The position numbers and the translations under genes are program-made. Below the pieces are notes generated by a model. That model was given only the letters and a program-made list of their open reading frames with translations. It made no database searches and was not told where the DNA came from. Positions 2,155 to 59,044 of a stretch of DNA of 64,000 nt are shown here, in pieces. The stretch lies in the sequence record PX994957.1, one strand, 5' to 3'. Every line of letters begins with the position of its first letter. Position 1 is the first letter of the stretch. The DNA comes from a phage.

Positions 2155-2613
2155 TTAATATGCCTGCAAAACGAATTTAAAGTTATCAGCCAACATACGG
2201 TTCATTTCTTCAAGTGTTTGATACTCAGAATGATGATTACGAGTAAACGCTAAAGCTAACTGTCCTTTTCCAAATCCCGTCGTCAGAGGTTTCATCTTAG
2301 AAGCAGGCAGATAAAACACTGTGTATGGAACATTGTTATTTGCAATAGTACGTGCAAGCTGAGACCGACGTTGACGAATATGACTTAGAACTGCACTGAA
2401 TCCTTGCTTAGAACGCTGATTACCTACATAAAATCGTGCTGACACACATGGATTACTAAATGGACGACCATCTAATTTACTTACTAAAAAGTAAAATCCA
2501 GGTTTAGATAAAATATCTTTATGCGGAGTTCCCAAAAACCACTCACCGCCCTTGATTGTACCAATAACAGTAGCACCTGCATCATTCAGATCAGTAACAG
2601 TCATATATTTCAT
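2155..2613 (-). CDS. ndd: Ndd nucleoid disruption protein
   Basis: 152 aa from ATG 2613 (SD GAGGAAATTAAT); T4 Ndd is 151 aa; position between denB and 52; track ORF N-terminal 16 codons are read-through. Confidence 0.75.
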
Positions 2614-2673
2614 ATTAATTTCCTCTAAATTATTTTCTACTCCAAGGCCGCATGAATACACACGGCCATTAAA

Positions 2674-2889
2674 TTAATCGTCGCAGTCGACGCTCAATTC
2701 CCAAAACTCTTCTACGGTATAAGTTTCAGTATCATTTTCAATACAGAAACGTTCATTACTGTTATTTGCTAAAGTAGCGTTAACTGTCGGTTTCTCGCTA
2801 GTGCTCTTAAGAGGTGAAATACGAATTAACTGATCACCGTTATCTAAACAGAAAATTTCACCAACTTTTACATCTTTAAAACTTTTCAT
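2674..2889 (-). CDS. hypothetical protein (ndd.x-type)
   Basis: 71 aa; ATG 2889 with SD GAGGTGA. Confidence 0.55.
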   Translation of the reverse strand: MKSFKDVKVGEIFCLDNGDQLIRISPLKSTSEKPTVNATLANNSNERFCIENDTETYTVEEFWELSVDCDD

Positions 2890-3004
2890 AATTCACCTCA
2901 AGGAGTATAAAATCCAAATGCAGTTGTTGACCATCCCATCCAATATGGAAAATTTGCACCAATGTAAAACATAAGAATATAAAACCAACCGCTCAACAAA
3001 TTCA

Positions 3005-3202
3005 TCATTTTACACCATTCCAAATTGTTTCAACTACTGATTTTAAACCATTTTGATAAATATCCATTCCGACTACTGCCATCAAATAGATTCCAACTAC
3101 AACTGAACCTAAGGCGAAAATCAGCATAAAAATAAATAAAGTCGGAAAAATATTATCGAAAAACCATTCAATAAATGTAAAAGCACCGCGTTTACGCTTC
3201 AT
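3005..3202 (-). CDS. 65-aa membrane protein
   Basis: ATG 3202 with SD GAGGAAAATA; hydrophobic core FIFMLIFALGSVVVGIYLMAVVG; track start is TTG read-through. Confidence 0.55.
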   Translation of the reverse strand: MKRKRGAFTFIEWFFDNIFPTLFIFMLIFALGSVVVGIYLMAVVGMDIYQNGLKSVVETIWNGVK

Positions 3203-3209
3203 ATTTTCC

Positions 3210-3323
3210 TCACATAAATCCAAAATAAGCGTTTAACATATCAATCATTAAAACGATTGGGAATATACTCAAAACTATTAGTATTATAACTACATTCCAT
3301 ATAGCTTTAACAATCTTTTTCAT
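3210..3323 (-). CDS. 37-aa hydrophobic peptide
   Basis: ATG 3323 after SD GGAGGAACA directly downstream of early promoter; MKKIVKAIWNVVIILIVLSIFPIVLMIDM. Confidence 0.45.
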   Translation of the reverse strand: MKKIVKAIWNVVIILIVLSIFPIVLMIDMLNAYFGFM

Positions 3324-3351
3324 TTTGTGTTCCTCCGTAGTTGATAGTTGT

Positions 3352-3382
3352 ATAGTACCACAGAGGAACAGTCTTGTAAACA
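3352..3382 (-). promoter_or_regulatory. T-even early promoter
   Basis: GTTTAC (3377-3382), 18-nt spacer, TACTAT (3352-3357); flanked by inverted repeat GTTCCTC/GAGGAAC. Confidence 0.55.
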
Positions 3383-3598
3383 ACTTTTTTAAAAATATTC
3401 GTAATAAATGTGAATACCAACTACTACCGCTGAAACCTGTGCAACCCACCACGCGCAAGCAATAAGTACAGAATTAAAAATTTTCATAATAACCTCATCA
3501 CAAAAGTAAATGTTAAACAAATTAATGGAATACTAATTAACCAAACAAAACACCACCATAATGAACTCATAGTTCAATCTCAACGATTTTCATTTTAC

Positions 3599-10246: not shown

Positions 10247-10507
10247 TTATTTAAAACGAATAGTTGAATCCTTAAAGAACAACCCAGAACATACTGTTCC
10301 TTCTACTTTCTGCCCAGTAGGTCCAATAGCACGAAATCCAGTATGTTGGAAATCATTTTCAGAGCAACCGAACCAATTATATCCAGTGATTTCAATATTC
10401 GTAAAACCACTCGATGATAAAATTTTAGTTGCATTATCAGCATCAGTACATCCTACTAAAGATACTGCTAATACTAATGCTGCAATAGAACGATTAATAT
10501 ATTTCAT
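10247..10507 (-). CDS. predicted lipoprotein (signal peptide + lipobox LVGC)
   Basis: 86 aa from ATG 10507; MKYINRSIAALVLAVSLVGCTD. Confidence 0.6.
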   Translation of the reverse strand: MKYINRSIAALVLAVSLVGCTDADNATKILSSSGFTNIEITGYNWFGCSENDFQHTGFRAIGPTGQKVEGTVCSGLFFKDSTIRFK

Positions 10508-10512
10508 AGTTT

Positions 10513-10887
10513 TCACTTAAATTTAATGGCTTGAAGGAGACTAATAATTCTCAAACGGCTTCTTTCATCTTTAACTGTAAAAGAAAGAGGGTCGCCAGAT
10601 TTCATAGTGATAGTGCATTCAAAATCAAAATCTTCAGGAACTTCTTCGAAGAAGTCAAATTCTTCATCATAAATTAGAACTTCACTCCGCAGACTGTGAA
10701 GAATTTTTCCAGCATTTCTGCTAGTTGCTGTACTAATCATTGTAACATTATGACCTTTCATATCTTCAACGATAAATTCGCTTGTAGATATTACGGCATT
10801 AATAGAACCATTCCTATTACTAGCAGAAAGTAGATATTTCTTTTCTTCACCTTCGCGAACACGATATTTCTTACCGATTTTAAACAT
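10513..10887 (-). CDS. hypothetical protein (39.x-type)
   Basis: 124 aa from ATG 10887 with SD AAGGGTGA; track start is GTG. Confidence 0.55.
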   Translation of the reverse strand: MFKIGKKYRVREGEEKKYLLSASNRNGSINAVISTSEFIVEDMKGHNVTMISTATSRNAGKILHSLRSEVLIYDEEFDFFEEVPEDFDFECTITMKSGDPLSFTVKDERSRLRIISLLQAIKFK

Positions 10888-24495: not shown

Positions 24496-24789
24496 TTATT
24501 CACCTGTGATTTCGGTTACGATATTTTTGTTATTAAAGTTTTTATCGCAATACAGAACATAATTATACTGCATTACACCACCAAACTTAAGTTGTTTTTG
24601 CACTTCAGCTTTCATTTTAGGACGATCGCGCTCAACAATATTCATAATATCCGCTTCAATTTGAGTTTCAACTTCAGTCTGATCTGCAGTCATAGACCAT
24701 TCACACAAGTCTTTATCATATCCTGCCATAGCAGGCTGAGCAGCACAAGAAGCCAAAGTAAAAATTGTAGCAAAAATAAATTTTTTCAT
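24496..24789 (-). CDS. sp: Sp (spackle) periplasmic protein
   Basis: 97 aa, equal to T4 Sp; signal peptide MKKFIFATIFTLASCAAQPAMA; SD GAGGAGATTATC. Confidence 0.7.
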   Translation of the reverse strand: MKKFIFATIFTLASCAAQPAMAGYDKDLCEWSMTADQTEVETQIEADIMNIVERDRPKMKAEVQKQLKFGGVMQYNYVLYCDKNFNNKNIVTEITGE

Positions 24790-28384: not shown

Positions 28385-29227
28385 TTAATCAACTGCTATT
28401 GGATGAATAGCATTAAACTTATGAAATGCTTCTGATTTTTCTTTACGTGAAACGCACATGCGAAGAACCTTTAATGGCTCGTCTTCTTCACCCAACGATT
28501 TTCGTTTTTCAATATTCGACGTTTTCCAACGAGCTTGCTCTGGAAACTCTCTATTGATTTGCTCAAGCGCTCTATTATGTTTAGAATTACTACGAATTGA
28601 ACTGCACCCGCCAGGAGCTTGTGCTTTTCCAGATACAACCAGATATTTGAACAAGGCCAAATGCGGATAACCTTGATTAATTAAATTGAGAAATGCATAC
28701 ATATCTTCGCACAAATCAATTTTTCCATACCCAATTTGTTCTGTCGTAAGTTTTCCAAGGTCATACCATGTATTCGTGAATCCATATGAATTTTCACGAT
28801 AATTACCCCAAGATGAAGTAATTTTAAAAATAGGTAGACGAGCATGACCATGATAATACCCGCAATCCATGGCATCTTCGACGTATTGAATCAATTCATA
28901 GAACTGTTCATGAGTCAATTGATTAACTTTATCCACACAACGACGGTCATCTCTTTTTCGCATTGAACTCATACGAATAGTAGTATCATCGTCAATCATC
29001 CAGATTCGTTGACCTGCATACATATCAGTAATTGCTTTACGAGTACCGGCAATTCCGTTTACATCATCAGGAATAGTTATAATTTTAGCTCTAGACCCAT
29101 AGGCATCATAATAAGCTTTTTCTTCATGTTCACGCACTACAATATGGGGTTCATAATCAGTCGGAAACATATCAAGGGCAGAAACTGCCCCGACACGCTG
29201 ATAACTTGGAATTACGAATTGAATCAT
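28385..29227 (-). CDS. GT-A-like glycosyltransferase at the beta-gt position; candidate beta-alpha glucosyltransferase
   Basis: 280 aa from ATG 29227 (ATGA overlap with gene 42 stop); DxD-like MIDDDTTI; too short for T4 beta-gt (351 aa, GT-B). Confidence 0.6.
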   Translation of the reverse strand: MIQFVIPSYQRVGAVSALDMFPTDYEPHIVVREHEEKAYYDAYGSRAKIITIPDDVNGIAGTRKAITDMYAGQRIWMIDDDTTIRMSSMRKRDDRRCVDKVNQLTHEQFYELIQYVEDAMDCGYYHGHARLPIFKITSSWGNYRENSYGFTNTWYDLGKLTTEQIGYGKIDLCEDMYAFLNLINQGYPHLALFKYLVVSGKAQAPGGCSSIRSNSKHNRALEQINREFPEQARWKTSNIEKRKSLGEEDEPLKVLRMCVSRKEKSEAFHKFNAIHPIAVD

Positions 29228-29964
29228 TTCCACTCACCTTTATAGTCTTTTTTCACAATATGAGTTTCGCCAGTATTCCACCAATGATCAACCAAGTAAA
29301 AATGACGAGAATATACATGAAGACTTCCGACATTCCATATAATAGAACCTGCTTTATACTGACGAGTTGAATCGCCGGCATTCAAATCAGATACTAATTT
29401 ATCTAATACGTATTTTTGCCATGCATAATCATTACGGAATCCGAAGACTACGTCATTTGAGCGCATGCTTACTACTGCATTGACTTTCTTATCACGAATC
29501 AGGTACTGTACTGTATTAGTACACATGAAATCTGACATGCCATCTTTATTGTAGTCAAATTGCATGGATGGACGAGTATAAATCATGATACCACGTCGAG
29601 AATCAGGATTTTGACCAAGTTCAGCTAAACACATATCATACTGAGCATAGTTATCTTCTGACCAAATAGCCCAACCATAATTCGAGTTAATTTCGCCTTT
29701 AGAAGATGCTACCTGCTGCCAAATCTTTGGTGTTTCACCTGGAATATCTTTAACAAACAAGCTCTTAGATTTATACCATTCAAGTTCGCGCTGAATGTAT
29801 TCATCATTAAGAGCGCCAAAAATAAACGGTTCATCTGCTACAAATGATGCGCCAATAATTTCAATAGTTTTAACACCAGTTTTATCAACTACGAAATCTT
29901 TTTCCTTTAATGCAGTTCCCAAATAAAAACGGATTTCTTCAACTGTCATAGAGTCATTAATCAT
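29224..29964 (-). CDS. 42: gp42 dCMP hydroxymethylase
   Basis: 246 aa, equal to T4 gp42; thymidylate-synthase-like fold. Confidence 0.92.
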   Translation of the reverse strand: MINDSMTVEEIRFYLGTALKEKDFVVDKTGVKTIEIIGASFVADEPFIFGALNDEYIQRELEWYKSKSLFVKDIPGETPKIWQQVASSKGEINSNYGWAIWSEDNYAQYDMCLAELGQNPDSRRGIMIYTRPSMQFDYNKDGMSDFMCTNTVQYLIRDKKVNAVVSMRSNDVVFGFRNDYAWQKYVLDKLVSDLNAGDSTRQYKAGSIIWNVGSLHVYSRHFYLVDHWWNTGETHIVKKDYKGEWK

Positions 29965-29971
29965 TTAAACC

Positions 29972-30121
29972 TCAATTGATGCATTCATATTTAAATTGTA
30001 ACAGTAATAAACCCCACCCTATGATAAGAGTTGGAATCATAGCAGGAACTGTTACGCTATAGTATATACTTATTATAACCATCAAGATTAAAAGCAACAC
30101 TGTTATAATTTTGCTTTTCAT
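29972..30121 (-). CDS. 49-aa membrane peptide
   Basis: ATG overlaps imm stop (ATGA), SD AGAAGGA; MKSKIITVLLLILMVIISIYYSVTVPAMIPTLIIGWGLLLL; absent from ORF track. Confidence 0.4.
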   Translation of the reverse strand: MKSKIITVLLLILMVIISIYYSVTVPAMIPTLIIGWGLLLLQFKYECIN

Positions 30122-30369
30122 TCCTTCTCTCTGATGATAATTACTTGATTTGGTTGTGCGGATTTTTTAGTTTCACCCGCAATTGACCAAATAAATGTAA
30201 TAAACCAACCAATAATTGACCAGTTAAACAGTAAAGATGTGAAAAAGATTCCTACTGTTGATTTTGACCCACGCATCAAGGCGATGAACCATGGAAGCAT
30301 GTATATAATAATAGCCAACACACCTGAAACTAAAACCATAAAAATTGAACCTGCTACTAAAGTTTCCAT
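30118..30369 (-). CDS. imm: Imm superinfection immunity membrane protein
   Basis: 83 aa, equal to T4 Imm; two hydrophobic helices; between 42 and 43. Confidence 0.82.
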   Translation of the reverse strand: METLVAGSIFMVLVSGVLAIIIYMLPWFIALMRGSKSTVGIFFTSLLFNWSIIGWFITFIWSIAGETKKSAQPNQVIIIREKE

Positions 30370-30376
30370 GCTTTCC

Positions 30377-30757
30377 TCACTTAGTCAAATTTTTTACACA
30401 TGAATTATAAGAATTCACTACATACTCCATCGGAGCATTTTTACCAGTACGCCATTGGTAATTATTAGCCCAATTAGCCCAAAGTTCGGCGCAGTAGTTT
30501 TCAATTTTTTCTTCGCGTGTAATTACATCTGAATTACGATATGCTTGAGCAGATTCATCTGGACGAATAGCTTCGTCAAAATTTGCCTGCATTTGTTCTA
30601 CTGTTTGCTTTGGAGCTTCTTTATAACACTTGACATTAGGATTATAAAACTTGCTTGAACAGTTTACAATTTTTCCTACATCAGACTGATTTACTACCGG
30701 TCCTTGAGCCACACAACCAGTAAGACCTAATGCAATAACCAAAATAGCGATTTTCAT
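30377..30757 (-). CDS. lipoprotein (imm.1-type)
   Basis: 126 aa; signal peptide + lipobox MKIAILVIALGLTGC; SD GAGGAAATTATT. Confidence 0.6.
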   Translation of the reverse strand: MKIAILVIALGLTGCVAQGPVVNQSDVGKIVNCSSKFYNPNVKCYKEAPKQTVEQMQANFDEAIRPDESAQAYRNSDVITREEKIENYCAELWANWANNYQWRTGKNAPMEYVVNSYNSCVKNLTK

Positions 30758-30767
30758 AATAATTTCC

Positions 30768-31004
30768 TCAAATGCAAGTAGTAATTACTCCAGTAGTGCT
30801 TATGCAGGTATTACCAATTTGCACACCTAAAGATCCATTTGTATTCACATGAAGATTATCATCAATTTTAACTGATATTTTACCATTAGTGTGAATAACG
30901 GTGCTAGATTCAATCACAGGTTGAGTATCATTTTCAACACTAACAAATGGAACTGCTGCTAATGCAACTAAACAAACTGCTAAGCATCCCATAACAATTT
31001 TCAT
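30768..31004 (-). CDS. small exported protein with signal peptide
   Basis: 78 aa from ATG 31004 with SD GGAGAATAAA; MKIVMGCLAVCLVALAAVPFVS. Confidence 0.5.
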   Translation of the reverse strand: MKIVMGCLAVCLVALAAVPFVSVENDTQPVIESSTVIHTNGKISVKIDDNLHVNTNGSLGVQIGNTCISTTGVITTCI

Positions 31005-31041
31005 TTTATTCTCCAAATCCGTATCAGTAGTTGATAGTTGT

Positions 31042-31071
31042 ATAGTACCATGGAAGAACATTCTTGTAAAC
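31042..31071 (-). promoter_or_regulatory. T-even early promoter
   Basis: GTTTAC (31066-31071), 18-nt spacer, TACTAT (31042-31047); conserved leader. Confidence 0.55.
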
Positions 31072-31158
31072 AGTTTTGTGAAAATTTTTTAGGGAATTTT
31101 AAATGTCCAGAATCATCTGTTTTTCATAAGTATAGATTTATATTACTTGTATGAAAAA

Positions 31159-31174
31159 GGGACCCGGAGGTCCC
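31159..31174 (-). terminator. intrinsic terminator after gene 43
   Basis: GGGACC CGGA GGTCCC hairpin followed on minus strand by UUUUUCAUAC. Confidence 0.6.
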
Positions 31175-31187
31175 TAGATTTATTCTA

Positions 31188-33884
31188 TCAGCCAAACAGG
31201 AAGTCTAACGAAGCTTTTTCTTCATAGTCCATACCAGCCGATTCACACATGCCCGCAAGCGGTTTAACAAACGATTTTTGGAACAAAGTTGAGTAGTCAA
31301 TCCAAAACAGTACGTCAGAACGAATTTCTTTTGGAAGTTCTGTACCCGACGGCCAAGCAATGCATTTGTCACCAAATGGATTTCCTTCACGCAATGGAAG
31401 AACCATTACTTTATTTCCATCCAAAATTGGAGCTACACCTAAACCGCTAACAGCTCGACGATAAGTTAGCACACCACGAATATGGAACGGACATTTAAAT
31501 CCTGGCCAACCTTTATCATCATATTTCGCTATATCGTTCGCAGTTTTTACTTCAGCAATAACTTTATAATCAAGTTGACGATATTCTTTCTCAAAGTTCT
31601 TGTAGTATTCTTGGACAGACTCTTCACCTTCTTGAAGAATACGACGAATACTTTCTTCGAGAGCTTCTTGGACCGCTTTAGGCGTTGAACTCTGCTGAGT
31701 TTCCATACCCATGATTTTTAGATGTGGTTCAGCAAAACGCTTATCTTCCATATCATAAACGTTCAGAGCATAACGCTTTTTCGCTTTCCAAAATCCACCA
31801 ACACCCTTTGAACCAAGCGGAGGGCAAGAAATAGCTTCACGGTCCATATGCATCAGATGCTCGCGGTTATTCATATAATCACATAACTCACGATATGCAA
31901 CATCAATCATAGGTTCCATCTTTTTCTTACCAAACTGATTCATGAATTCAACTAAATCATTTTGTTCTTTAAAGCGGTCAAGACCTACTTTTTCAATTAC
32001 TTTATCTACACAAACATATACCGAATCAGTATCACCTGCTGCGATGAAATCTTCACCATTAGTTCCACATACTTTATTCAGATATTCATTAATTTTGCGA
32101 GCAATCCACTGAATACCGACTTGACCGAAAATTGTGATAGCAGTAGCATTTCGCAAATCATAGTAACGGAAATGAATATTACCAAGAGCACCATAAAGAC
32201 TGTTAATAAGAATTTTACGGTTCAGCTGATTTGTGTTAGCAAGTGTAGCTGCTTTTTCACATTCTTCGATCAGACTATTAAGAACAGATTCGGTGTAATT
32301 CGATAATTCGTTTAAGAAATCATCACTGAACTTAACATATCGTTCAACTTCTGGTTTAGTTGAGCAAGACCCTGCGCCTTTCATAATAATCTTTTTAATA
32401 GCTTCGGCATTCATTTCTTCCGCGAACATTTTCTTTTTCCAATCTTTACGCTGGAAAAATACTTTAGCGATTTCCTTTGGAATGATACCTTCTTGGTGCT
32501 TATCATACATCCATCCATTCGGAGAGCAAGAATATTCATCACTTGGCTTAGGAGCTGTTCCTGCGATATATTCATGAATTGGATGAACTTTAAACTGCCC
32601 ACGAATAGTCTCAGGACTAATGTTAACCTGACGAATAATGCTAGGATACAGAGACGTCAAGTCAAAACTCATAATGTATCGACGAGCAATCGGTTTAGGT
32701 TCAAACACAAATGCACCTGGAAAACTCTGTTTAACGTGCGAACCTTGTTGAGGAATAACCTTATGTTCACCTTTCAGTGAGTTAAAAATAATAGCATCCC
32801 AAGTTTTAATAGGACTCATTACACCAGAAAAAGGCATTTTAGCGTAATAAGACATACTTAAAACTAGATCGATAAACCCACGAATTTTATCAATTGCTTG
32901 AACTGATTCTACGTCAATGATGTTATAACTAATGTATCTCTGATGATTAGTCTCACGAAGTTTATTAATAGGACCATCATACGGTAATTTACCTTTTTTG
33001 GTTTCATGCTGAGCAACTGATTCCAAAGAGAATGACGGCAAATTAGTAAATGCGAATTTCTTATACAAATCTAAATAATCAAGAATAGATACGCCATCAA
33101 TAGAATAAATTTCTTTGCTACCGTACACATTTTGAATTAGTTTAGATTTTACTCGACCGATTGGAGAGAAGCGTTTCATACTACGTTCACCGAGAACCAT
33201 TTTAACGCGATTCATGATATACGGAACGTCAAATCCCTCAATATTCCAACCAGTAAAAATAGCAGGTCGTTTCTGTTCCCAAAGATTGATATATTCCATG
33301 AGCATATCACGCTCATTATCAAATGACATATAAATTACTCGGTCAAGAATTTCTTGAGGAACTTCATCACCACCTTCGCAGTCGAGCTTAGCAGCTAACT
33401 TTGCATCCCATTTTGATACTGAACCGTACATTGAATTCAAAAGGTCGAAAACATAAAAACGATCGTCAATTGAATCATAATGAGTGATAGCATCAATTTC
33501 ATATTCAGCTTTCATTGGATCAGGAAATTTATCACCAGTAACCTCAATGTCACAGTTAGCTACACGAACAAATTTTCGGTCATAAACAATTTCTGAACCA
33601 TACGTATCACTGATATAAGCGAGTTTAAAATCGTTCATACCAAGAGCTTCGAGACCGATGTCTTCCATTCGCTTCATCCAATCTCGAGCATCTTTCATTG
33701 ATGGAAATTTTTGAGGAGCGCAATTTTTACCATAGATGTCTTTGTATTTTGACTCTTCCTTACAATGTCTAAACATAGTTGGAAGATATTCTACTTCACG
33801 AGTACGTTCCTTTCCATTTTCATCAATATAACGTTCAACAATGTTATTTCCGACTGTTTCGATAGAGATATAAAATTCTTTCAT
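31188..33884 (-). CDS. 43: gp43 DNA polymerase (family B)
   Basis: 898 aa, equal to T4 gp43; exo and pol motifs (FDIE, SLYPSII, YGDTDS); N- and C-termini as recalled for T4. Confidence 0.96.
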   Translation of the reverse strand: MKEFYISIETVGNNIVERYIDENGKERTREVEYLPTMFRHCKEESKYKDIYGKNCAPQKFPSMKDARDWMKRMEDIGLEALGMNDFKLAYISDTYGSEIVYDRKFVRVANCDIEVTGDKFPDPMKAEYEIDAITHYDSIDDRFYVFDLLNSMYGSVSKWDAKLAAKLDCEGGDEVPQEILDRVIYMSFDNERDMLMEYINLWEQKRPAIFTGWNIEGFDVPYIMNRVKMVLGERSMKRFSPIGRVKSKLIQNVYGSKEIYSIDGVSILDYLDLYKKFAFTNLPSFSLESVAQHETKKGKLPYDGPINKLRETNHQRYISYNIIDVESVQAIDKIRGFIDLVLSMSYYAKMPFSGVMSPIKTWDAIIFNSLKGEHKVIPQQGSHVKQSFPGAFVFEPKPIARRYIMSFDLTSLYPSIIRQVNISPETIRGQFKVHPIHEYIAGTAPKPSDEYSCSPNGWMYDKHQEGIIPKEIAKVFFQRKDWKKKMFAEEMNAEAIKKIIMKGAGSCSTKPEVERYVKFSDDFLNELSNYTESVLNSLIEECEKAATLANTNQLNRKILINSLYGALGNIHFRYYDLRNATAITIFGQVGIQWIARKINEYLNKVCGTNGEDFIAAGDTDSVYVCVDKVIEKVGLDRFKEQNDLVEFMNQFGKKKMEPMIDVAYRELCDYMNNREHLMHMDREAISCPPLGSKGVGGFWKAKKRYALNVYDMEDKRFAEPHLKIMGMETQQSSTPKAVQEALEESIRRILQEGEESVQEYYKNFEKEYRQLDYKVIAEVKTANDIAKYDDKGWPGFKCPFHIRGVLTYRRAVSGLGVAPILDGNKVMVLPLREGNPFGDKCIAWPSGTELPKEIRSDVLFWIDYSTLFQKSFVKPLAGMCESAGMDYEEKASLDFLFG

Positions 33885-39646: not shown

Positions 39647-40662
39647 TGTGTTGCCTCTACATATAACTGATTTGCATATTGAATAAGTGCTTCACGGTCA
39701 GAATCAGTGATGTCTGGAATTGCATTAATGTATTCTTCCATCAACGTCTGAAGAGATTGAACTTCAACTTCTTCACTGTCATCTGACTCGACAAAGTTAT
39801 CAATCTTTGACACAACTCGTAATGAATGCACAACTTTTTCTAGTTCAGATTCGAACTTCGTTAGATTTTTGTCTACTTCAGTTACTATAACACGTACTGA
39901 TAGATTTGTAAAATCTTTATAGTCAATTTTTCCTTTAAATGGATAATGAATTCTACGATGCCAGGTAGTATTGTTTGGAATAAATTCCATTCGTTCTGTT
40001 TCTGTATCAAACATCCAGAACCCACGAGGGTCATTCTCGTCACCTGCAGTTAGTGTCCATGGTGTCCCAATATATCTAACGTTAGCAGCCTCAGAGATAG
40101 TATGGAAGTGACCAGACCACACTTCTTTATAAGTCTTAAGGAAATCAGGTTCAAGACCATGAGATTTCATTCCTTTATAAAAATAAAATCCATTCAGTTC
40201 CCAGTGACCAACACAAAAAGAAGCAGATGAAGTTTTGATGTGTTCAAGAATTTCACCAGTATTTTCTTCACACATCCAAGGAATTAAATCAATTAAACAT
40301 CCGTCAAAATCTACTGTAGTAGGCTTATCATATACTTTAACATTAGGATATTTAGCCAAAAGCTCAGTAGAAGCATTTGGATGCATTACATTTTTGTAGT
40401 GAAGATCGTGATTTCCTACAATAGTATGTAGGGTAATACCAGCATCATCAAGCATTTGAACTATTTCACGAGCAAATTCCATAGTTTTATGCGTGATCGC
40501 TTTTCGCACATCAAAAATATCACCGTATTGAATCCATACCGTAATTCCATTTTTCTTAGAATATTCTATCGCTTGCTTAATTCCATCAATTTGAATACCG
40601 CGAATCCACTCATCATCAGCTTTAACGCCTAAATGCCAATCACCTAAATTTAAAATTTTCAT
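39643..40662 (-). CDS. 47: gp47 recombination nuclease subunit (SbcD/Mre11-like)
   Basis: 339 aa, equal to T4 gp47; phosphoesterase motifs DWH, GDIFD, GNHD. Confidence 0.9.
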   Translation of the reverse strand: MKILNLGDWHLGVKADDEWIRGIQIDGIKQAIEYSKKNGITVWIQYGDIFDVRKAITHKTMEFAREIVQMLDDAGITLHTIVGNHDLHYKNVMHPNASTELLAKYPNVKVYDKPTTVDFDGCLIDLIPWMCEENTGEILEHIKTSSASFCVGHWELNGFYFYKGMKSHGLEPDFLKTYKEVWSGHFHTISEAANVRYIGTPWTLTAGDENDPRGFWMFDTETERMEFIPNNTTWHRRIHYPFKGKIDYKDFTNLSVRVIVTEVDKNLTKFESELEKVVHSLRVVSKIDNFVESDDSEEVEVQSLQTLMEEYINAIPDITDSDREALIQYANQLYVEATQ

Positions 40663-40799
40663 ATATCAAGAACCGTCGTTGAAATGCAAAATAAAATTAT
40701 TGAAATAAACCCATCTGGTGTGCTAAAGAACCCAATCCAACATGCTCTAGTGAATAGATAAAATGCGAGAAAAAGTATCACATATCCAAGAAATATCAT
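40660..40799 (-). CDS. 46-aa hydrophobic peptide (47.1-type)
   Basis: stop overlaps gp47 ATG (ATGA); MIFLGYVILFLAFYLFTRACWIGFFSTPDGFISIILF; absent from ORF track. Confidence 0.4.
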
Positions 40800-46048: not shown

Positions 46049-46264
46049 TTAAGCCTTTTTATCAAGAACAGCATTCAGCTTGTTAGTAATTTTATCCAGA
46101 CGCTCATTGAACTCACTAGAAGATAAGCCTTTTTCTGGAGAAATTAAGCTAATCACGAAAAATACAACAATAAAAGGAATAAGGAAAATAGCTCCAACTG
46201 CCATAAACAGAAAGAATGTTACAGTTGTAAGAAAATCAGCTAAACCTTTACGAAATTTATACAT
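46049..46264 (-). CDS. small membrane protein
   Basis: 71 aa; hydrophobic stretch TVTFFLFMAVGAIFLIPFIVVFFVISLI. Confidence 0.5.
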   Translation of the reverse strand: MYKFRKGLADFLTTVTFFLFMAVGAIFLIPFIVVFFVISLISPEKGLSSSEFNERLDKITNKLNAVLDKKA

Positions 46265-55031: not shown

Positions 55032-55439
55032 TCACTCAATTTCAATTTTACTAAATACGCAGAATATGATGGAAAAGACTATATAAGCACCGCATACAGA
55101 TTGAACTAATACCATTCCAAAGAACCAAACAATATTATCAAACAATGTCTGTTTTACGTCGAAAGGACGTAAACTTACAGTAATATTATCACCTTTTTCT
55201 ATTGAAGAATACATCTCTGGTGAAATATATTCGCTAAATCTATAACCGTCATTTAGTTCATATACAGCAATAAACGATAAACTAGACCCCTTTCCTTGAG
55301 TTCCTGTAAAGGTATTAACTACAGTAACATCATAATCTTTATAATGCATATAATCATTAATTGCGTAATAACCATATGCAATTACTATACATAAACAACA
55401 TATCAATAAATTCAATCTTTTAATTATCAACCGTTTCAT
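55032..55439 (-). CDS. membrane protein (two predicted TM segments)
   Basis: 135 aa; N-terminal LLICCLCIVIAYGYYAI and C-terminal FFGMVLVQSVCGAYIVFSIIFCVF hydrophobic stretches. Confidence 0.55.
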   Translation of the reverse strand: MKRLIIKRLNLLICCLCIVIAYGYYAINDYMHYKDYDVTVVNTFTGTQGKGSSLSFIAVYELNDGYRFSEYISPEMYSSIEKGDNITVSLRPFDVKQTLFDNIVWFFGMVLVQSVCGAYIVFSIIFCVFSKIEIE

Positions 55440-57572: not shown

Positions 57573-58586
57573 TCATTTATAATAACTTCGGTGGTTTTCA
57601 AGATAAACCTTCTCAAGGAAGTCATCCCAGAAACCCATGTCTACTTTTTGCTGCATACCGTTCTTAGAAGCTTCAGTAGATGCTGCTTCTACTTGATCGA
57701 CCACATCTTCCAAAAACTCTTGAACTGTTTTAAATGGATGTTTACCCAACTTCACGTCGAGAATAAATGGAGCATCTTGAAGTGGATAAACCAAGTCACC
57801 AGTTTTGTAAATTTCCAATAGTTGAAGTCCACCACGGCAAGCATGGCTCAGAGCTTTCCAGTCAATGCCCTCATTCGCTTCAGCCTTACGAGCACGTTCG
57901 CCGTATTCAGCATCTAATTTGTTAAGTGACTGCTTAAGCTCAATAAGAGAAAGTGTTGTCTGATATTTACGACCCAACACAGTGTAAAACGTTTGTGGAC
58001 CTGTTTTCTCATGATTATGGAATACCCATTCACAGAACTCGTTTTCAGGGAGTCTGTGTTTGATATCTTCTATCTTAGTACGACGAAGTCTATCAGGGAT
58101 TCCTTCTTGATAGTCGACCCACTGGTCAGGGATTTGATTAACTACTTTCAATACATCACGTAATGCGGCCAAACGAGAACCCTTGACACCGTATTTAGAA
58201 GCTTGCTTGCGGACATATCCTAAATAGGATTTCATGTTAGTTGTATAAAACCGTGAACGATTGTCTTGGATAAATTTCCATACATCAGGCAAATCAGATT
58301 TAACCACTAGTTCAGGCGGAGTGTGAAGCATATCCAATGCTACAGTTTCACCATCTGCTGCTAATTTAAAGAAATACTTAAGACTGTATAGTTCATGGTC
58401 AATATCATCTTTAGTGTTTTTAGATGATGTGTTGTTAGTGTTTTTACTCATATGCTCTTTAACATTTCCGATAAGAATATCGCGAGCACGAGGAACAAAG
58501 ATTTCTTTAAAATCTACATCAGATTCTGGAGTAGAAGTTCCATAAAGATGACTACCAAAATAGCTTTTCATTACTGTTTTCATCAT
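57573..58586 (-). CDS. nucleotidyltransferase-fold protein
   Basis: 337 aa; N-terminal FGSHLYGTSTPESDVDF fits Pol-beta NTase GS-x10-DxD signature with a later candidate catalytic Asp (VALDMLH). Confidence 0.55.
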   Translation of the reverse strand: MMKTVMKSYFGSHLYGTSTPESDVDFKEIFVPRARDILIGNVKEHMSKNTNNTSSKNTKDDIDHELYSLKYFFKLAADGETVALDMLHTPPELVVKSDLPDVWKFIQDNRSRFYTTNMKSYLGYVRKQASKYGVKGSRLAALRDVLKVVNQIPDQWVDYQEGIPDRLRRTKIEDIKHRLPENEFCEWVFHNHEKTGPQTFYTVLGRKYQTTLSLIELKQSLNKLDAEYGERARKAEANEGIDWKALSHACRGGLQLLEIYKTGDLVYPLQDAPFILDVKLGKHPFKTVQEFLEDVVDQVEAASTEASKNGMQQKVDMGFWDDFLEKVYLENHRSYYK

Positions 58587-59044
58587 TCAGCCTTATATTC
58601 AATAACAGGACATACTTTAGCTTTACGAGCTTTTAAAAATTCAACGATAATCGATTTCTTGGATTGAATAGGAGGTAAACCTTTATTTTTCCTATCAATA
58701 TTTTCTACGTGTAAAGCATAATCCTTTTTCCATTTATAATCTTTATATTTTTCACGCAAATGTGCAGGAATAACAAATGAACCGATAATAAGTAAAACAA
58801 CCAAAAGCGCAAGTATAAATGCCGATGGAAGAAGAGCCCATAAACTACCGAAAATAAGCCAACGTTGTAGGCTTTCTGCACAAATAATTGTTAACCCTAC
58901 GAGTATAGCACACCCAAAAATAGAAACGAAAAATGTAGGTATGGCAATAGACCAAAAATATGCGCATAGTGTCTTAGGTCGTTGCCATTCATCGTTAAAC
59001 AATTTGAATAATTTATAGTGCCAAGAGTTTTCATTAATAATCAT
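58583..59044 (-). CDS. membrane protein
   Basis: 153 aa; hydrophobic segments SIAIPTFFVSIFGCAILVGLTIICA and GSLWALLPSAFILALLVVLLIIGSFVI. Confidence 0.55.
   Translation of the reverse strand: MIINENSWHYKLFKLFNDEWQRPKTLCAYFWSIAIPTFFVSIFGCAILVGLTIICAESLQRWLIFGSLWALLPSAFILALLVVLLIIGSFVIPAHLREKYKDYKWKKDYALHVENIDRKNKGLPPIQSKKSIIVEFLKARKAKVCPVIEYKAE

Follow-up and report, generated by a model that had tools for sequence, protein, structure and literature searches.

A lipoprotein gene linked to imm in T4-like phages, and its neighbours in the imm region of a Tequatrovirus

Exclusion among the T-even phages acts after adsorption, and for T4 it is established that Imm excludes superinfecting T-even phages by blocking the entry of their DNA. 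In 1989, Lu and Henning reportedly obtained exclusion with plasmid-borne imm alone, so that Imm.1, the product of the adjoining gene, would not be strictly required. The receptors of T2, T4 and T6 differ (OmpF/FadL, OmpC/LPS and Tsx, respectively). T4 Spackle (Sp, PF25676) acts in the periplasm, where it inhibits the tail lysozyme gp5 (PMC7677548), and outer-membrane lipoproteins of T5 (Llp) and of phi80 and N15 (Cor) block FhuA (PMC9586334).

The DNA considered here is a stretch of 64,000 nucleotides from a phage (sequence record PX994957.1; "the window"). Its positions 29972-31004, on the minus strand, correspond to the imm region of Tequatrovirus, with 98.5% identity to published phages having the same gene order. 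Judged by its sequence, the region comes from a T2/T6-like Tequatrovirus, and it is largely ordinary and near-identical to hundreds of deposited genomes; since every one of its four genes sits in an already catalogued phage family, novelty is low, and among the four a known function attaches to Imm alone. A preliminary description had read the region as four consecutive envelope-protein genes of 49, 83, 126 and 78 amino acids, and these ORFs are present on the minus strand with the coordinates and lengths claimed (Table 1). The envelope-directed character of the products is likewise borne out by sequence rules (hydrophobic segments, a lipobox, an N-terminal signal), which are the sole basis on which localisation and topology were assigned. 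PADLOC and NCBIfam scans of the four proteins gave no meaningful matches, a sequence search of solved structures with Imm, Imm.1 and the orf78 product gave nothing below E 0.3, and Rfam and tandem-repeat scans of the imm region gave nothing relevant.

Table 1. Positions of the genes and signals discussed, numbered along the window
Feature	Coordinates	Strand	Match or basis
Other lipoprotein	10247-10516	-	Lipobox LVGC by rule; phrog_902 (without functional annotation)
sp (Spackle), second known exclusion gene	24496-24789	-	PF25676, E 4.7e-44; phrog_1586
Gene 42 (dCMP hydroxymethylase), essential, downstream in same unit as imm	29224-29964	-	ORF list
orf49, membrane hairpin peptide (predicted), 49 aa	29972-30121	-	Start in ATGA overlap with imm stop; phrog_3610
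imm, inner-membrane superinfection-immunity protein, 83 aa	30118-30369	-	PF14373; phrog_1039
imm.1, lipoprotein with lipobox LTGC, 126 aa	30377-30757	-	PF17578 (DUF5481); phrog_1754
orf78, accessory small secreted or membrane-anchored protein (predicted), 78 aa	30768-31004	-	Shine-Dalgarno GGAG 6 nt upstream
Early-type promoter-like site	31042-31070	-	TTTACA, 17 nt, TACTAT, TG before -10; consensus scan
Intrinsic terminator after gene 43	31158-31175	-	7-bp stem, 5 G-C pairs, then TTTTTC
Gene 43 (DNA polymerase)	31188-33884

Strongly hydrophobic segments are encoded by 12 of the 119 minus-strand ORFs crudely called in the window, and four of the 12 are consecutive; a run of at least four such ORFs came up in 0.7% of 20,000 shuffles (P ~0.007), and a run of four envelope genes is unlikely to have arisen by chance. 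This speaks against one reading of the locus, in which four unrelated small envelope genes have gathered by historical accident where the genome is plastic, downstream of gene 43, with an exclusion role for Imm alone and the others serving, for example, envelope stress, lysis timing or host-specific fitness. That reading, which we regard as somewhat unlikely overall, does draw support from the many other small membrane ORFs spread over the window. The preliminary description had counted at least six envelope-directed proteins, including Sp and a second lipoprotein; the count holds as a minimum and is an underestimate, about 13 ORFs having such features. Both of the named genes are as it had proposed: the Spackle profile is matched above its curated threshold (149.4 bits, cut-off 27), and the lipoprotein encoded from position 10247 has the LVGC lipobox, with no Pfam match.

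The gene order would make of the region a single early unit. After the gene 43 terminator, which is kept in T4, T2 and T6, there is one early-type promoter-like site, followed by orf78, imm.1, imm, orf49 and gene 42; the sequence of the site is conserved in T4 and nearly so in T6 and T2 (2-3 spacer changes each). From its position it would drive all five genes, and the four envelope genes are probably expressed early behind this consensus match. A Shine-Dalgarno GGAG or GAGG lies 5-8 nt before the ATG of orf78, imm.1 and imm. All four ORFs are under coding constraint, with pN/pS of 0.04-0.4 (Nei-Gojobori counts on 9-34 loci) indicating purifying selection, and the gene 42 product is 94-98% identical to gp42 of related phages, with the same annotation in related records.

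Imm is the least problematic of the four products, its presence in the cluster being confirmed by the match to PF14373 (Imm_superinfect; 58.2 bits, cut-off 27.9, E 7.7e-16) and by phrog_1039 (E 3.6e-32). By the Kyte-Doolittle scale it is hydrophobic over residues 1-34 and 39-65, and its loop (R33, K36) and its tail are charged. It is identical to T6 Imm and shares 82 of 83 residues with T4 Imm (T43A), from which it shows no substantial difference: both have two hydrophobic segments and are encoded in the same position upstream of gene 42. Because of this near-identity, the exclusion function of T4 Imm can be assigned to it by transfer: it would insert in the inner membrane and block DNA entry by superinfecting T-even phages. 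The imm gene has a pN/pS of ~0.03 within the genus and 0.42 pooled across genera.

By sequence rule, the product of the 126-aa ORF upstream of imm was also correctly taken for a lipoprotein. Its product matches PF17578 (DUF5481) at 239.2 bits (cut-off 27) and phrog_1754 at E 5e-44, and its N-terminus, MKIAILVIALGLTGC, satisfies the PROSITE PS51257-type lipobox rule; the criterion used here was a basic n-region, a hydrophobic core and a lipobox of the form [LVI][ASTVI][GAS]C. The match to Pfam LPAM_1 is below threshold (E 0.44). The +2 residue is Val, and by the E. coli Lol rule (no Asp at +2) Imm.1 is therefore predicted to be a periplasmic protein anchored in the outer membrane. An AlphaFold2 model (overall pLDDT 59.5, from a shallow alignment), of too low confidence for its fold to be inferred, has three helices at residues 53-125, with pLDDT 61-86; this C-terminal domain is predicted to be helical and carries Cys pairs. 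Foldseek searches with the Imm.1 and orf78 models gave a best E of 2.4 in the PDB and recovered from BFVD each protein's own family only, and literature searches turned up no functional study of imm.1. The product name "iduronate sulfatase" given to T4 Imm.1 in RefSeq was unsupported in domain scans. T4 Imm.1 is 99% identical to the protein of the window, with the same lipobox and the same place upstream of imm: there is one substitution, and the window protein has one extra C-terminal Lys, missing from T4, that results from an indel of 1 nt immediately ahead of the stop. The protein differs from that of T2 at two residues and from that of T6 at one, and the pooled pN/pS of imm.1 is 0.04.

The preliminary description had proposed receptor masking as a plausible role; in such a reading, Imm.1, the orf78 product and possibly the orf49 product would be factors of the T5 Llp/Cor type, binding the phage's own outer-membrane receptor and blocking adsorption. 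Imm.1 resembles Llp and Cor in being a phage lipoprotein, probably early (from the promoter-like site) and predicted to reach the outer membrane, and orf78 is variable and accessory, as would be expected of a strain-specific factor. Against this, the window proteins have no homology to Llp or Cor in Pfam, PHROGs, NCBIfam or PADLOC scans, nor similarity to any PADLOC model, and T-even exclusion is post-adsorption. The sequence of Imm.1 also tells against masking. A protein that blocks one particular receptor would be expected to change as receptor specificity changes, whereas Imm.1 is at most two residues apart among the window phage, T2, T4 and T6 and shows at least 95% identity across 502 phage records with hosts in several genera. 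Receptor masking by Imm.1 is thus unsupported, and the Llp/Cor-type reading as a whole is most improbable.

A different role is suggested by the company that imm.1 keeps. Imm.1 is ~33% identical in 155 Mosigvirus-type records, and at most one gene separates imm from a lipoprotein gene in at least five T4-like lineages. The arrangements vary: imm.1-imm in Tequatrovirus; 43 / lipoprotein / imm / 42 in two further lineages (loci L046/L047 and L054/L055/L058); 43 / imm / orf49 / lipoprotein in Dhakavirus and a related lineage; and, in Mosigvirus, dmd / imm.1 (35% identical, lipobox LTGC) / imm / sp, where each gene has an early-type promoter of its own. In the last case the imm.1-imm pair has been relocated and directly adjoins sp, whereas in this phage sp is ~5 kb from the imm region. 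That the lipoprotein-imm linkage recurs, and that the Mosigvirus pair moved together and landed next to the spackle gene, suggests that Imm.1 works with Imm in a shared exclusion role, and both observations tell against the historical-accident explanation. The variation in gene order between genera is what that explanation would lead one to expect, as is the knock-down of imm.1 in T4, without laboratory fitness effect (called "Not Fit", -0.77, in the CRISPRi-ART data; PMC11879866 supplement); gene adjacency in T4-like early regions can also be historical rather than functional.

All of the imm-linked lipoproteins have a Cys in a mid helix and another near the C-terminus. The gene 43-proximal lipoproteins of other genera (Dhakavirus, Kanagawavirus, Winklervirus, Kagamiyamavirus and others) share with Imm.1 the neighbourhood (gene 43, imm, orf49), a helical C-terminal half and the conserved Cys pair; in most of them, a Q-G-x-V-x-N/A-S-E/D-VGK motif comes after the lipobox. 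Their length exceeds that of Imm.1 by 20-50 residues, and most have an extra NQCGxNC motif. Their homology to Imm.1 is unproven, because the hhalign probability of 97% came largely from the signal peptide: without it the value is 50%, and hmmsearch gives 15 bits. In three genera a related lipoprotein was found with no detectable imm, in a pattern-limited scan that leaves the absence of imm unproven. Spackle itself resembles Imm.1 in being small, probably early, exported and furnished with Cys residues, and it acts in exclusion; it has no sequence or fold similarity to Imm.1 or to the orf78 and orf49 products, and, as a soluble periplasmic protein, it lacks the lipid anchor predicted for Imm.1.

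We lean, by a little, towards a model in which the locus is an imm region with Imm.1 as a co-factor or parallel layer of the exclusion function of Imm and Spackle, with orf49 as a separate gene and orf78 as a cassette. Imm.1 would be exported and lipid-modified at Cys15; the Val at +2 makes the outer membrane its probable destination, and from the inner face of that membrane it would expose a disulfide-stapled helical domain to the periplasm. Its target would not be the variable outer-membrane receptor but something invariant, perhaps the incoming tail tip or DNA conduit, or else some conserved part of the host envelope. The wider proposal that the cluster encodes superinfection-exclusion factors survives in part: it stands for Imm, known from T4, and partly, by gene association, for Imm.1, and is unsupported for orf49, whose adjacency to imm is positional, and for orf78, a cassette that offers no functional clue. 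As a lipoprotein travelling with imm across genera, Imm.1 is a concrete and cheap candidate for an Imm partner, testable with existing T4 genetics.

The 49-aa membrane peptide of the preliminary description is a real ORF that is kept intact at all 34 loci, drawn from eight Tevenvirinae genera, with hydrophobic stretches at residues 1-29 and 25-43 and Lys at both ends. It matches phrog_3610 over essentially its full length (E 2.4e-26; residues 3-49 on positions 1-47 of the 47-position profile), and PF26865 has a precomputed match on all 19 of its homologue clusters; these are a small membrane protein family of T4-like phages without attached function, for which a set of 1.84 billion proteins yields only three real clusters at 50% identity. 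Y20, P26, M28-T31, W36 and Q42 are invariant in 29 of 29 distinct sequences, N49 occurs in every one, and K44 and C47 are each altered in a single lineage, giving a nearly invariant motif P-x-MIPT...W...Q-x-K/R-x-x-C-x-N. The records of T4, T2, T6, JoYop, HY03, PBM-1 and CT01 leave the ORF unannotated, a minor omission but one that touches the best-studied phage of all, where a conserved gene for a membrane protein lies between imm and gene 42.

From the overlap of its start codon with the imm stop codon, orf49 would be translationally coupled to imm, and its own stop codon (TGA) sits within the GAGG Shine-Dalgarno of gene 42. Could it then be a mere coupling or leader ORF, by which ribosomes pass from imm to the start of gene 42 and no functional protein is made? 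Both overlaps would fit, as would its omission from reference annotations and the two lineages that lack orf49, in which imm overlaps gene 42 directly and is coupled to it. The peptide is conserved across genera at saturated synonymous sites, however (pN/pS 0.15-0.33 between genera; 0.40 pooled), with the motif just described, and the ORF is kept where the next gene is not gene 42 but a nucleotidyltransferase or lipoprotein gene, sometimes after a 38-nt gap; a pure leader role is accordingly very doubtful. In Winklervirus, Kagamiyamavirus, Kanagawavirus and Mosigvirus, orf49 lies downstream of gene 43 with no imm at the locus. Because it stays near gene 43 with or without imm, its adjacency to imm is best regarded as positional, an independence that is also in keeping with a historically assembled cluster. 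In the favoured model, orf49 would encode a separate small inner-membrane hairpin with both ends probably cytoplasmic, and would be a positionally conserved gene downstream of gene 43, translated by coupling to whatever is upstream; in this phage its translation would probably feed gene 42 initiation, and its role would not be tied to Imm.

Knock-downs of imm should probably be read with orf49 in mind. In the same T4 CRISPRi-ART work, the supplement gives imm knock-down as "Fit" (1.40, p 0.022) and gene 42 as "Fit", although a supplementary table lists imm as non-essential (PMC11879866). The "Fit" call for imm was counted toward coupling to gene 42; other causes could be behind it. A more ambitious combination is that lipoproteins of the Imm.1 type supply Imm with its missing partner in the periplasm and that orf49 is a genuine Tevenvirinae gene of many genera, for a 46-49-aa membrane protein, that links imm and gene 42 translation. 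We hold this conjunction to be unlikely as it stands. Should it be true, T-even immunity would be a two-component device, made of an inner-membrane protein and an outer-membrane-anchored lipoprotein and joined by Spackle in some genera, that spans the periplasm and intercepts the incoming tail tip or DNA conduit.

A resemblance of orf49 to signal peptidase I (Peptidase_S26; a second transmembrane segment plus box B, "AMIPTL" against "SMxPTL") was rejected as chance. The match is sub-threshold (11.3 bits, cut-off 22.9; in NCBIfam E 0.022 and 14 bits, cut-off 277) and is found in just 2 of the 15 members of the family; the Ser that is catalytic in box B (SGSMxPTL) is missing, the residue before M28 being variously A, L, V, P, C or H. 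When the 1.84 billion proteins were searched exhaustively with the profile, no peptidases came back, and the non-family matches were two repeat artefacts.

The remaining gene, orf78, would be a cassette, dispensable and with a secreted product, that occupies a polymorphic slot immediately after the promoter. T4 lacks it through a clean 247-bp indel that runs from its ATG to the imm.1 ATG; in T6 there is nothing in the slot, in T2 an unrelated ORF occupies it and CT01 has a rearrangement there, a polymorphism that again suits the view of the cluster as a historical accident. The gene was found in 326 phage records, all of them, among the matches listed, Tequatrovirus-type; its product matches phrog_4189 (E 3.7e-30) and has no Pfam match, and its pooled pN/pS is 0.38. 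A longer, 97-aa reading of the ORF was set aside: its start (31061) falls inside the promoter-like site (31070-31042), flanked there by the -35 and -10 hexamers, and no Shine-Dalgarno precedes it, and for these reasons the 78-aa reading is taken as the right one. The product has a predicted beta-rich body and two C-terminal Cys; its AlphaFold2 model (pLDDT 50.8, six short strands, shallow alignment) is too weak for fold inference. The N-terminus consists of MK, a 15-residue hydrophobic core and A-L-A, and fits the Sec rule of small residues at -3 and -1 (K2, hydrophobic residues 3-17, A14-L15-A16 before A17), though it may instead be an uncleaved anchor. No canonical lipobox was found in the window protein, VMGC (Cys7) being too near the N-terminus and LAVC having Val at -1; in 85-aa variants, an in-frame 7-residue duplication creates LAAC, and one UniRef name for such a protein is "Lipoprotein".

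A feature of modest interest in the imm region is a linkage that recurs beyond the genus: imm has a lipoprotein gene adjoining it, or one gene off, in at least five lineages, relocation included. The phage itself is a Tequatrovirus; bases 29900-31200 share 98.5% identity with Escherichia phage Ec_O157kw, and coverage of this stretch reaches 80% or more in 496 phage records. The cluster sequences are nearly identical to deposited ones and all fall within catalogued families, so the finding is, in kind, already known. The preliminary description of four consecutive envelope-targeted genes was correct in its coordinates, lengths and LGLTGC lipobox; Spackle at 24496 and the lipoprotein at 10247, whose lipobox is LVGC, were confirmed as well.

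Features of the imm region, in minus-strand order, and further small hydrophobic ORFs of the window
Feature	Coordinates	Strand	Position
gene 43	31188-33884	minus	first in order
terminator	31175-31158	minus	after gene 43
promoter-like site (TTTACA, 17 nt, TACTAT)	31070-31042	minus	after terminator
orf78	31004-30768	minus	directly behind promoter-like site
imm.1	30757-30377	minus	after orf78
imm	30369-30118	minus	after imm.1
orf49	30121-29972	minus	overlaps imm end
gene 42	29964-29224	minus	after orf49
T2/T6-type beta-glucosyl-HMC-alpha-glucosyltransferase gene	28385-29233	minus	after gene 42
small hydrophobic ORF	1782-1928	minus	
small hydrophobic ORF	3005-3202	minus	
small hydrophobic ORF	40659-40799	minus	
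small hydrophobic ORF	46049-46264	minus	
small hydrophobic ORF	55032-55439	minus	
small hydrophobic ORF	58583-59044	minus	

A GGAG or GAGG Shine-Dalgarno sequence precedes each of orf78, imm.1 and imm, and the orf49 start codon overlaps the stop of imm as ATGA. By rule-based analysis, Orf49 is a hairpin of two hydrophobic segments and has Lys at each end, Imm has two membrane segments, Imm.1 carries the canonical lipoprotein signal MKIAILVIALGLTGC with Val at +2, and the Orf78 signal consists of MK, a hydrophobic core and A-L-A, with no canonical lipobox found in the window form. Family scans place Imm in PF14373, Imm.1 in DUF5481, and Orf49 and Orf78 in PHROG families with no assigned function (phrog_3610 and phrog_4189). 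Substitution counts over 9-34 loci indicate purifying selection on all four genes: pooled pN/pS is 0.04 for imm.1, 0.38 for orf78 and 0.40 for orf49. Comparisons between genera, in which synonymous sites have reached saturation, give 0.15-0.33 for orf49. The imm values are about 0.03 inside the genus and 0.42 with genera pooled. Among 119 minus-strand ORFs from a crude gene call, 12 contain a strongly hydrophobic segment; shuffling produced a run of four such ORFs in 0.7% of cases. The suggestion that the window encodes at least six envelope-directed proteins holds as a lower bound but is low: the six further small hydrophobic ORFs, with matches to DUF7396, DUF7248 (with a phrog “periplasmic protein”), phrog_6693, phrog_1930, phrog_2547 and phrog_944 (“membrane protein”), bring the number to about 13.

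Within Tequatrovirus, Imm.1 is almost invariant: relative to the window protein, T4 has one substitution and lacks the C-terminal Lys, T2 differs at two residues, and T6 at one. T2, T4 and T6 use different receptors, and this near-invariance speaks against a receptor-specific masking role. The proposal that the cluster encodes exclusion or receptor-masking factors survives in part: Imm is a known exclusion protein and Imm.1 a reasonable candidate partner for it, but not a receptor mask, and for Orf49 and Orf78 an exclusion role is not supported.

The recurrent linkage, of modest interest in itself, is the main evidence that an Imm.1-type lipoprotein and Imm may work together, and is an association only. 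The second Imm.1 group (155 Mosigvirus-type records, homologue about 33% identical) keeps the LTGC lipobox and a C-terminal Cys pair. In Mosigvirus, imm.1 is not near gene 43, but sits between dmd and 61.2 in a contiguous block ordered imm.1, imm, sp (2495-3530 of the PhAPEC2 locus, L034; also L035 and L042), each gene with its own GTTTAC-type early promoter; orf49 has been left behind near gene 43. Other arrangements are 43 / lipoprotein / imm / 42 (loci L046/L047 and L054/L055/L058) and 43 / imm / orf49 / lipoprotein (Dhakavirus and the L044 type). The lipoproteins of other genera may be homologues of Imm.1: hhalign gave 97% when the signal peptide was included and 50% once it was removed. 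They share a late Cys pair, and in most of them the lipidated Cys is followed by a QG-x-V-x-N/A-S-E/D-VGK motif. Plasmid-borne imm alone reportedly gives exclusion. The AlphaFold2 model of Imm.1 has three helices (residues 53-125, moderate confidence), and fold searches with it gave no match beyond its own family. In T4 CRISPRi-ART data, imm.1 knock-down carries no fitness cost (PMC11879866), which is compatible with the gene mattering only during superinfection or in certain hosts. The RefSeq product name of T4 imm.1 (NC_000866, 26636-27013), “iduronate sulfatase”, looks like an annotation error, because domain scans give only DUF5481; the same record labels gene 42 “thymidylate synthase”.

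Found in 326 phage records, against 502 for Imm.1 at 95% identity or more, orf78 is an accessory cassette, and the slot that it occupies, immediately after the promoter-like site, is polymorphic. T4 lacks it through a clean 247-bp indel running from the orf78 ATG to the imm.1 ATG, so that T4 imm.1 uses the ribosome-binding site serving orf78 here; it is missing from T6 too. The T2 slot (L033 601-852) holds an unrelated 83-aa ORF (MKNIQTNFIQ...) with no signal sequence. In Shigella phage CT01 (L031 609-1446) the slot separating gene 43 from imm.1 is a duplicated, rearranged scar, which the record annotates as two hypothetical proteins: a truncated imm.1 N-terminus, an orf78 fragment, a duplicated promoter region, then full imm.1. 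The signal peptide (30940-31004) has undergone independent in-frame 21-bp (7-residue) duplications of a CLVALAA unit at three positions (variants P0025, P0033, P0034, L007 and L030); in one form the result is a canonical LAAC lipobox, and the family may thus switch between secreted and lipid-anchored forms.

By tblastn, orf49 matches 582 phage records, in genera that include Dhakavirus, Mosigvirus, Kanagawavirus, Winklervirus and Kagamiyamavirus besides Tequatrovirus, always shortly downstream of gene 43. In the last four of these other genera it is present without imm at the locus, following an arabinose-5-phosphate isomerase gene, and it is absent from the two lineages in which imm directly overlaps gene 42; its adjacency to imm is thus positional, not functional. 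In genera whose genomes have both the isomerase and a nucleotidyltransferase gene (L003, L004, L006, L008, L020-L022), it is found between the two; here it immediately precedes gene 42 and the glucosyltransferase gene. These genes serve the sugar modification of hydroxymethylcytosine, which puts orf49 usually just upstream of DNA-modification genes. The core is nearly invariant (Y20, P26, M28-I29-P30-T31, W36, Q42, K/R44, C47, N49), and homologues carry PF26865, a family newer than the Pfam copy scanned locally. A profile search run exhaustively against 1.84 billion representatives returned only three real clusters; the family is confined to these T4-like phages. A weak likeness between residues 20-36, IYYSVTVPAMIPTLIIGW, and the signal peptidase I sequence FIYEPFQIPSGSMMPTLLIGD (box B of E. 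coli LepB) was judged to be chance, because the match is sub-threshold and not common to the family.

Also of modest interest is that this conserved small gene is absent from the T4, T2 and T6 annotations. In T4 the reading frame is uninterrupted at the corresponding position (NC_000866 26227-26376; L001 4228-4377) but unannotated in RefSeq, and likewise in T2, T6, JoYop, HY03, PBM-1 and CT01; elsewhere it is labelled “immunity protein” or “hypothetical protein”. The GAGG Shine-Dalgarno of gene 42 contains the orf49 stop codon, an arrangement that, together with the ATGA overlap, points to a chain of translational coupling running from imm via orf49 into gene 42, and to a polar effect. In T4 CRISPRi-ART, imm knock-down scores “Fit”, though the paper's own supplementary table has imm as non-essential, and the T4 gene table of that study lists nothing between imm and 42 (PMC11879866); we infer that this score could be a polar effect of the chain (29964-30125). 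The end of gene 42 is in turn overlapped by the start of the glucosyltransferase gene, whose product has a Pfam TAGT match (E 1e-9) and is of T2/T6 type, not T4 beta-gt; one relative (L025) has a 213-aa ORF between the two.
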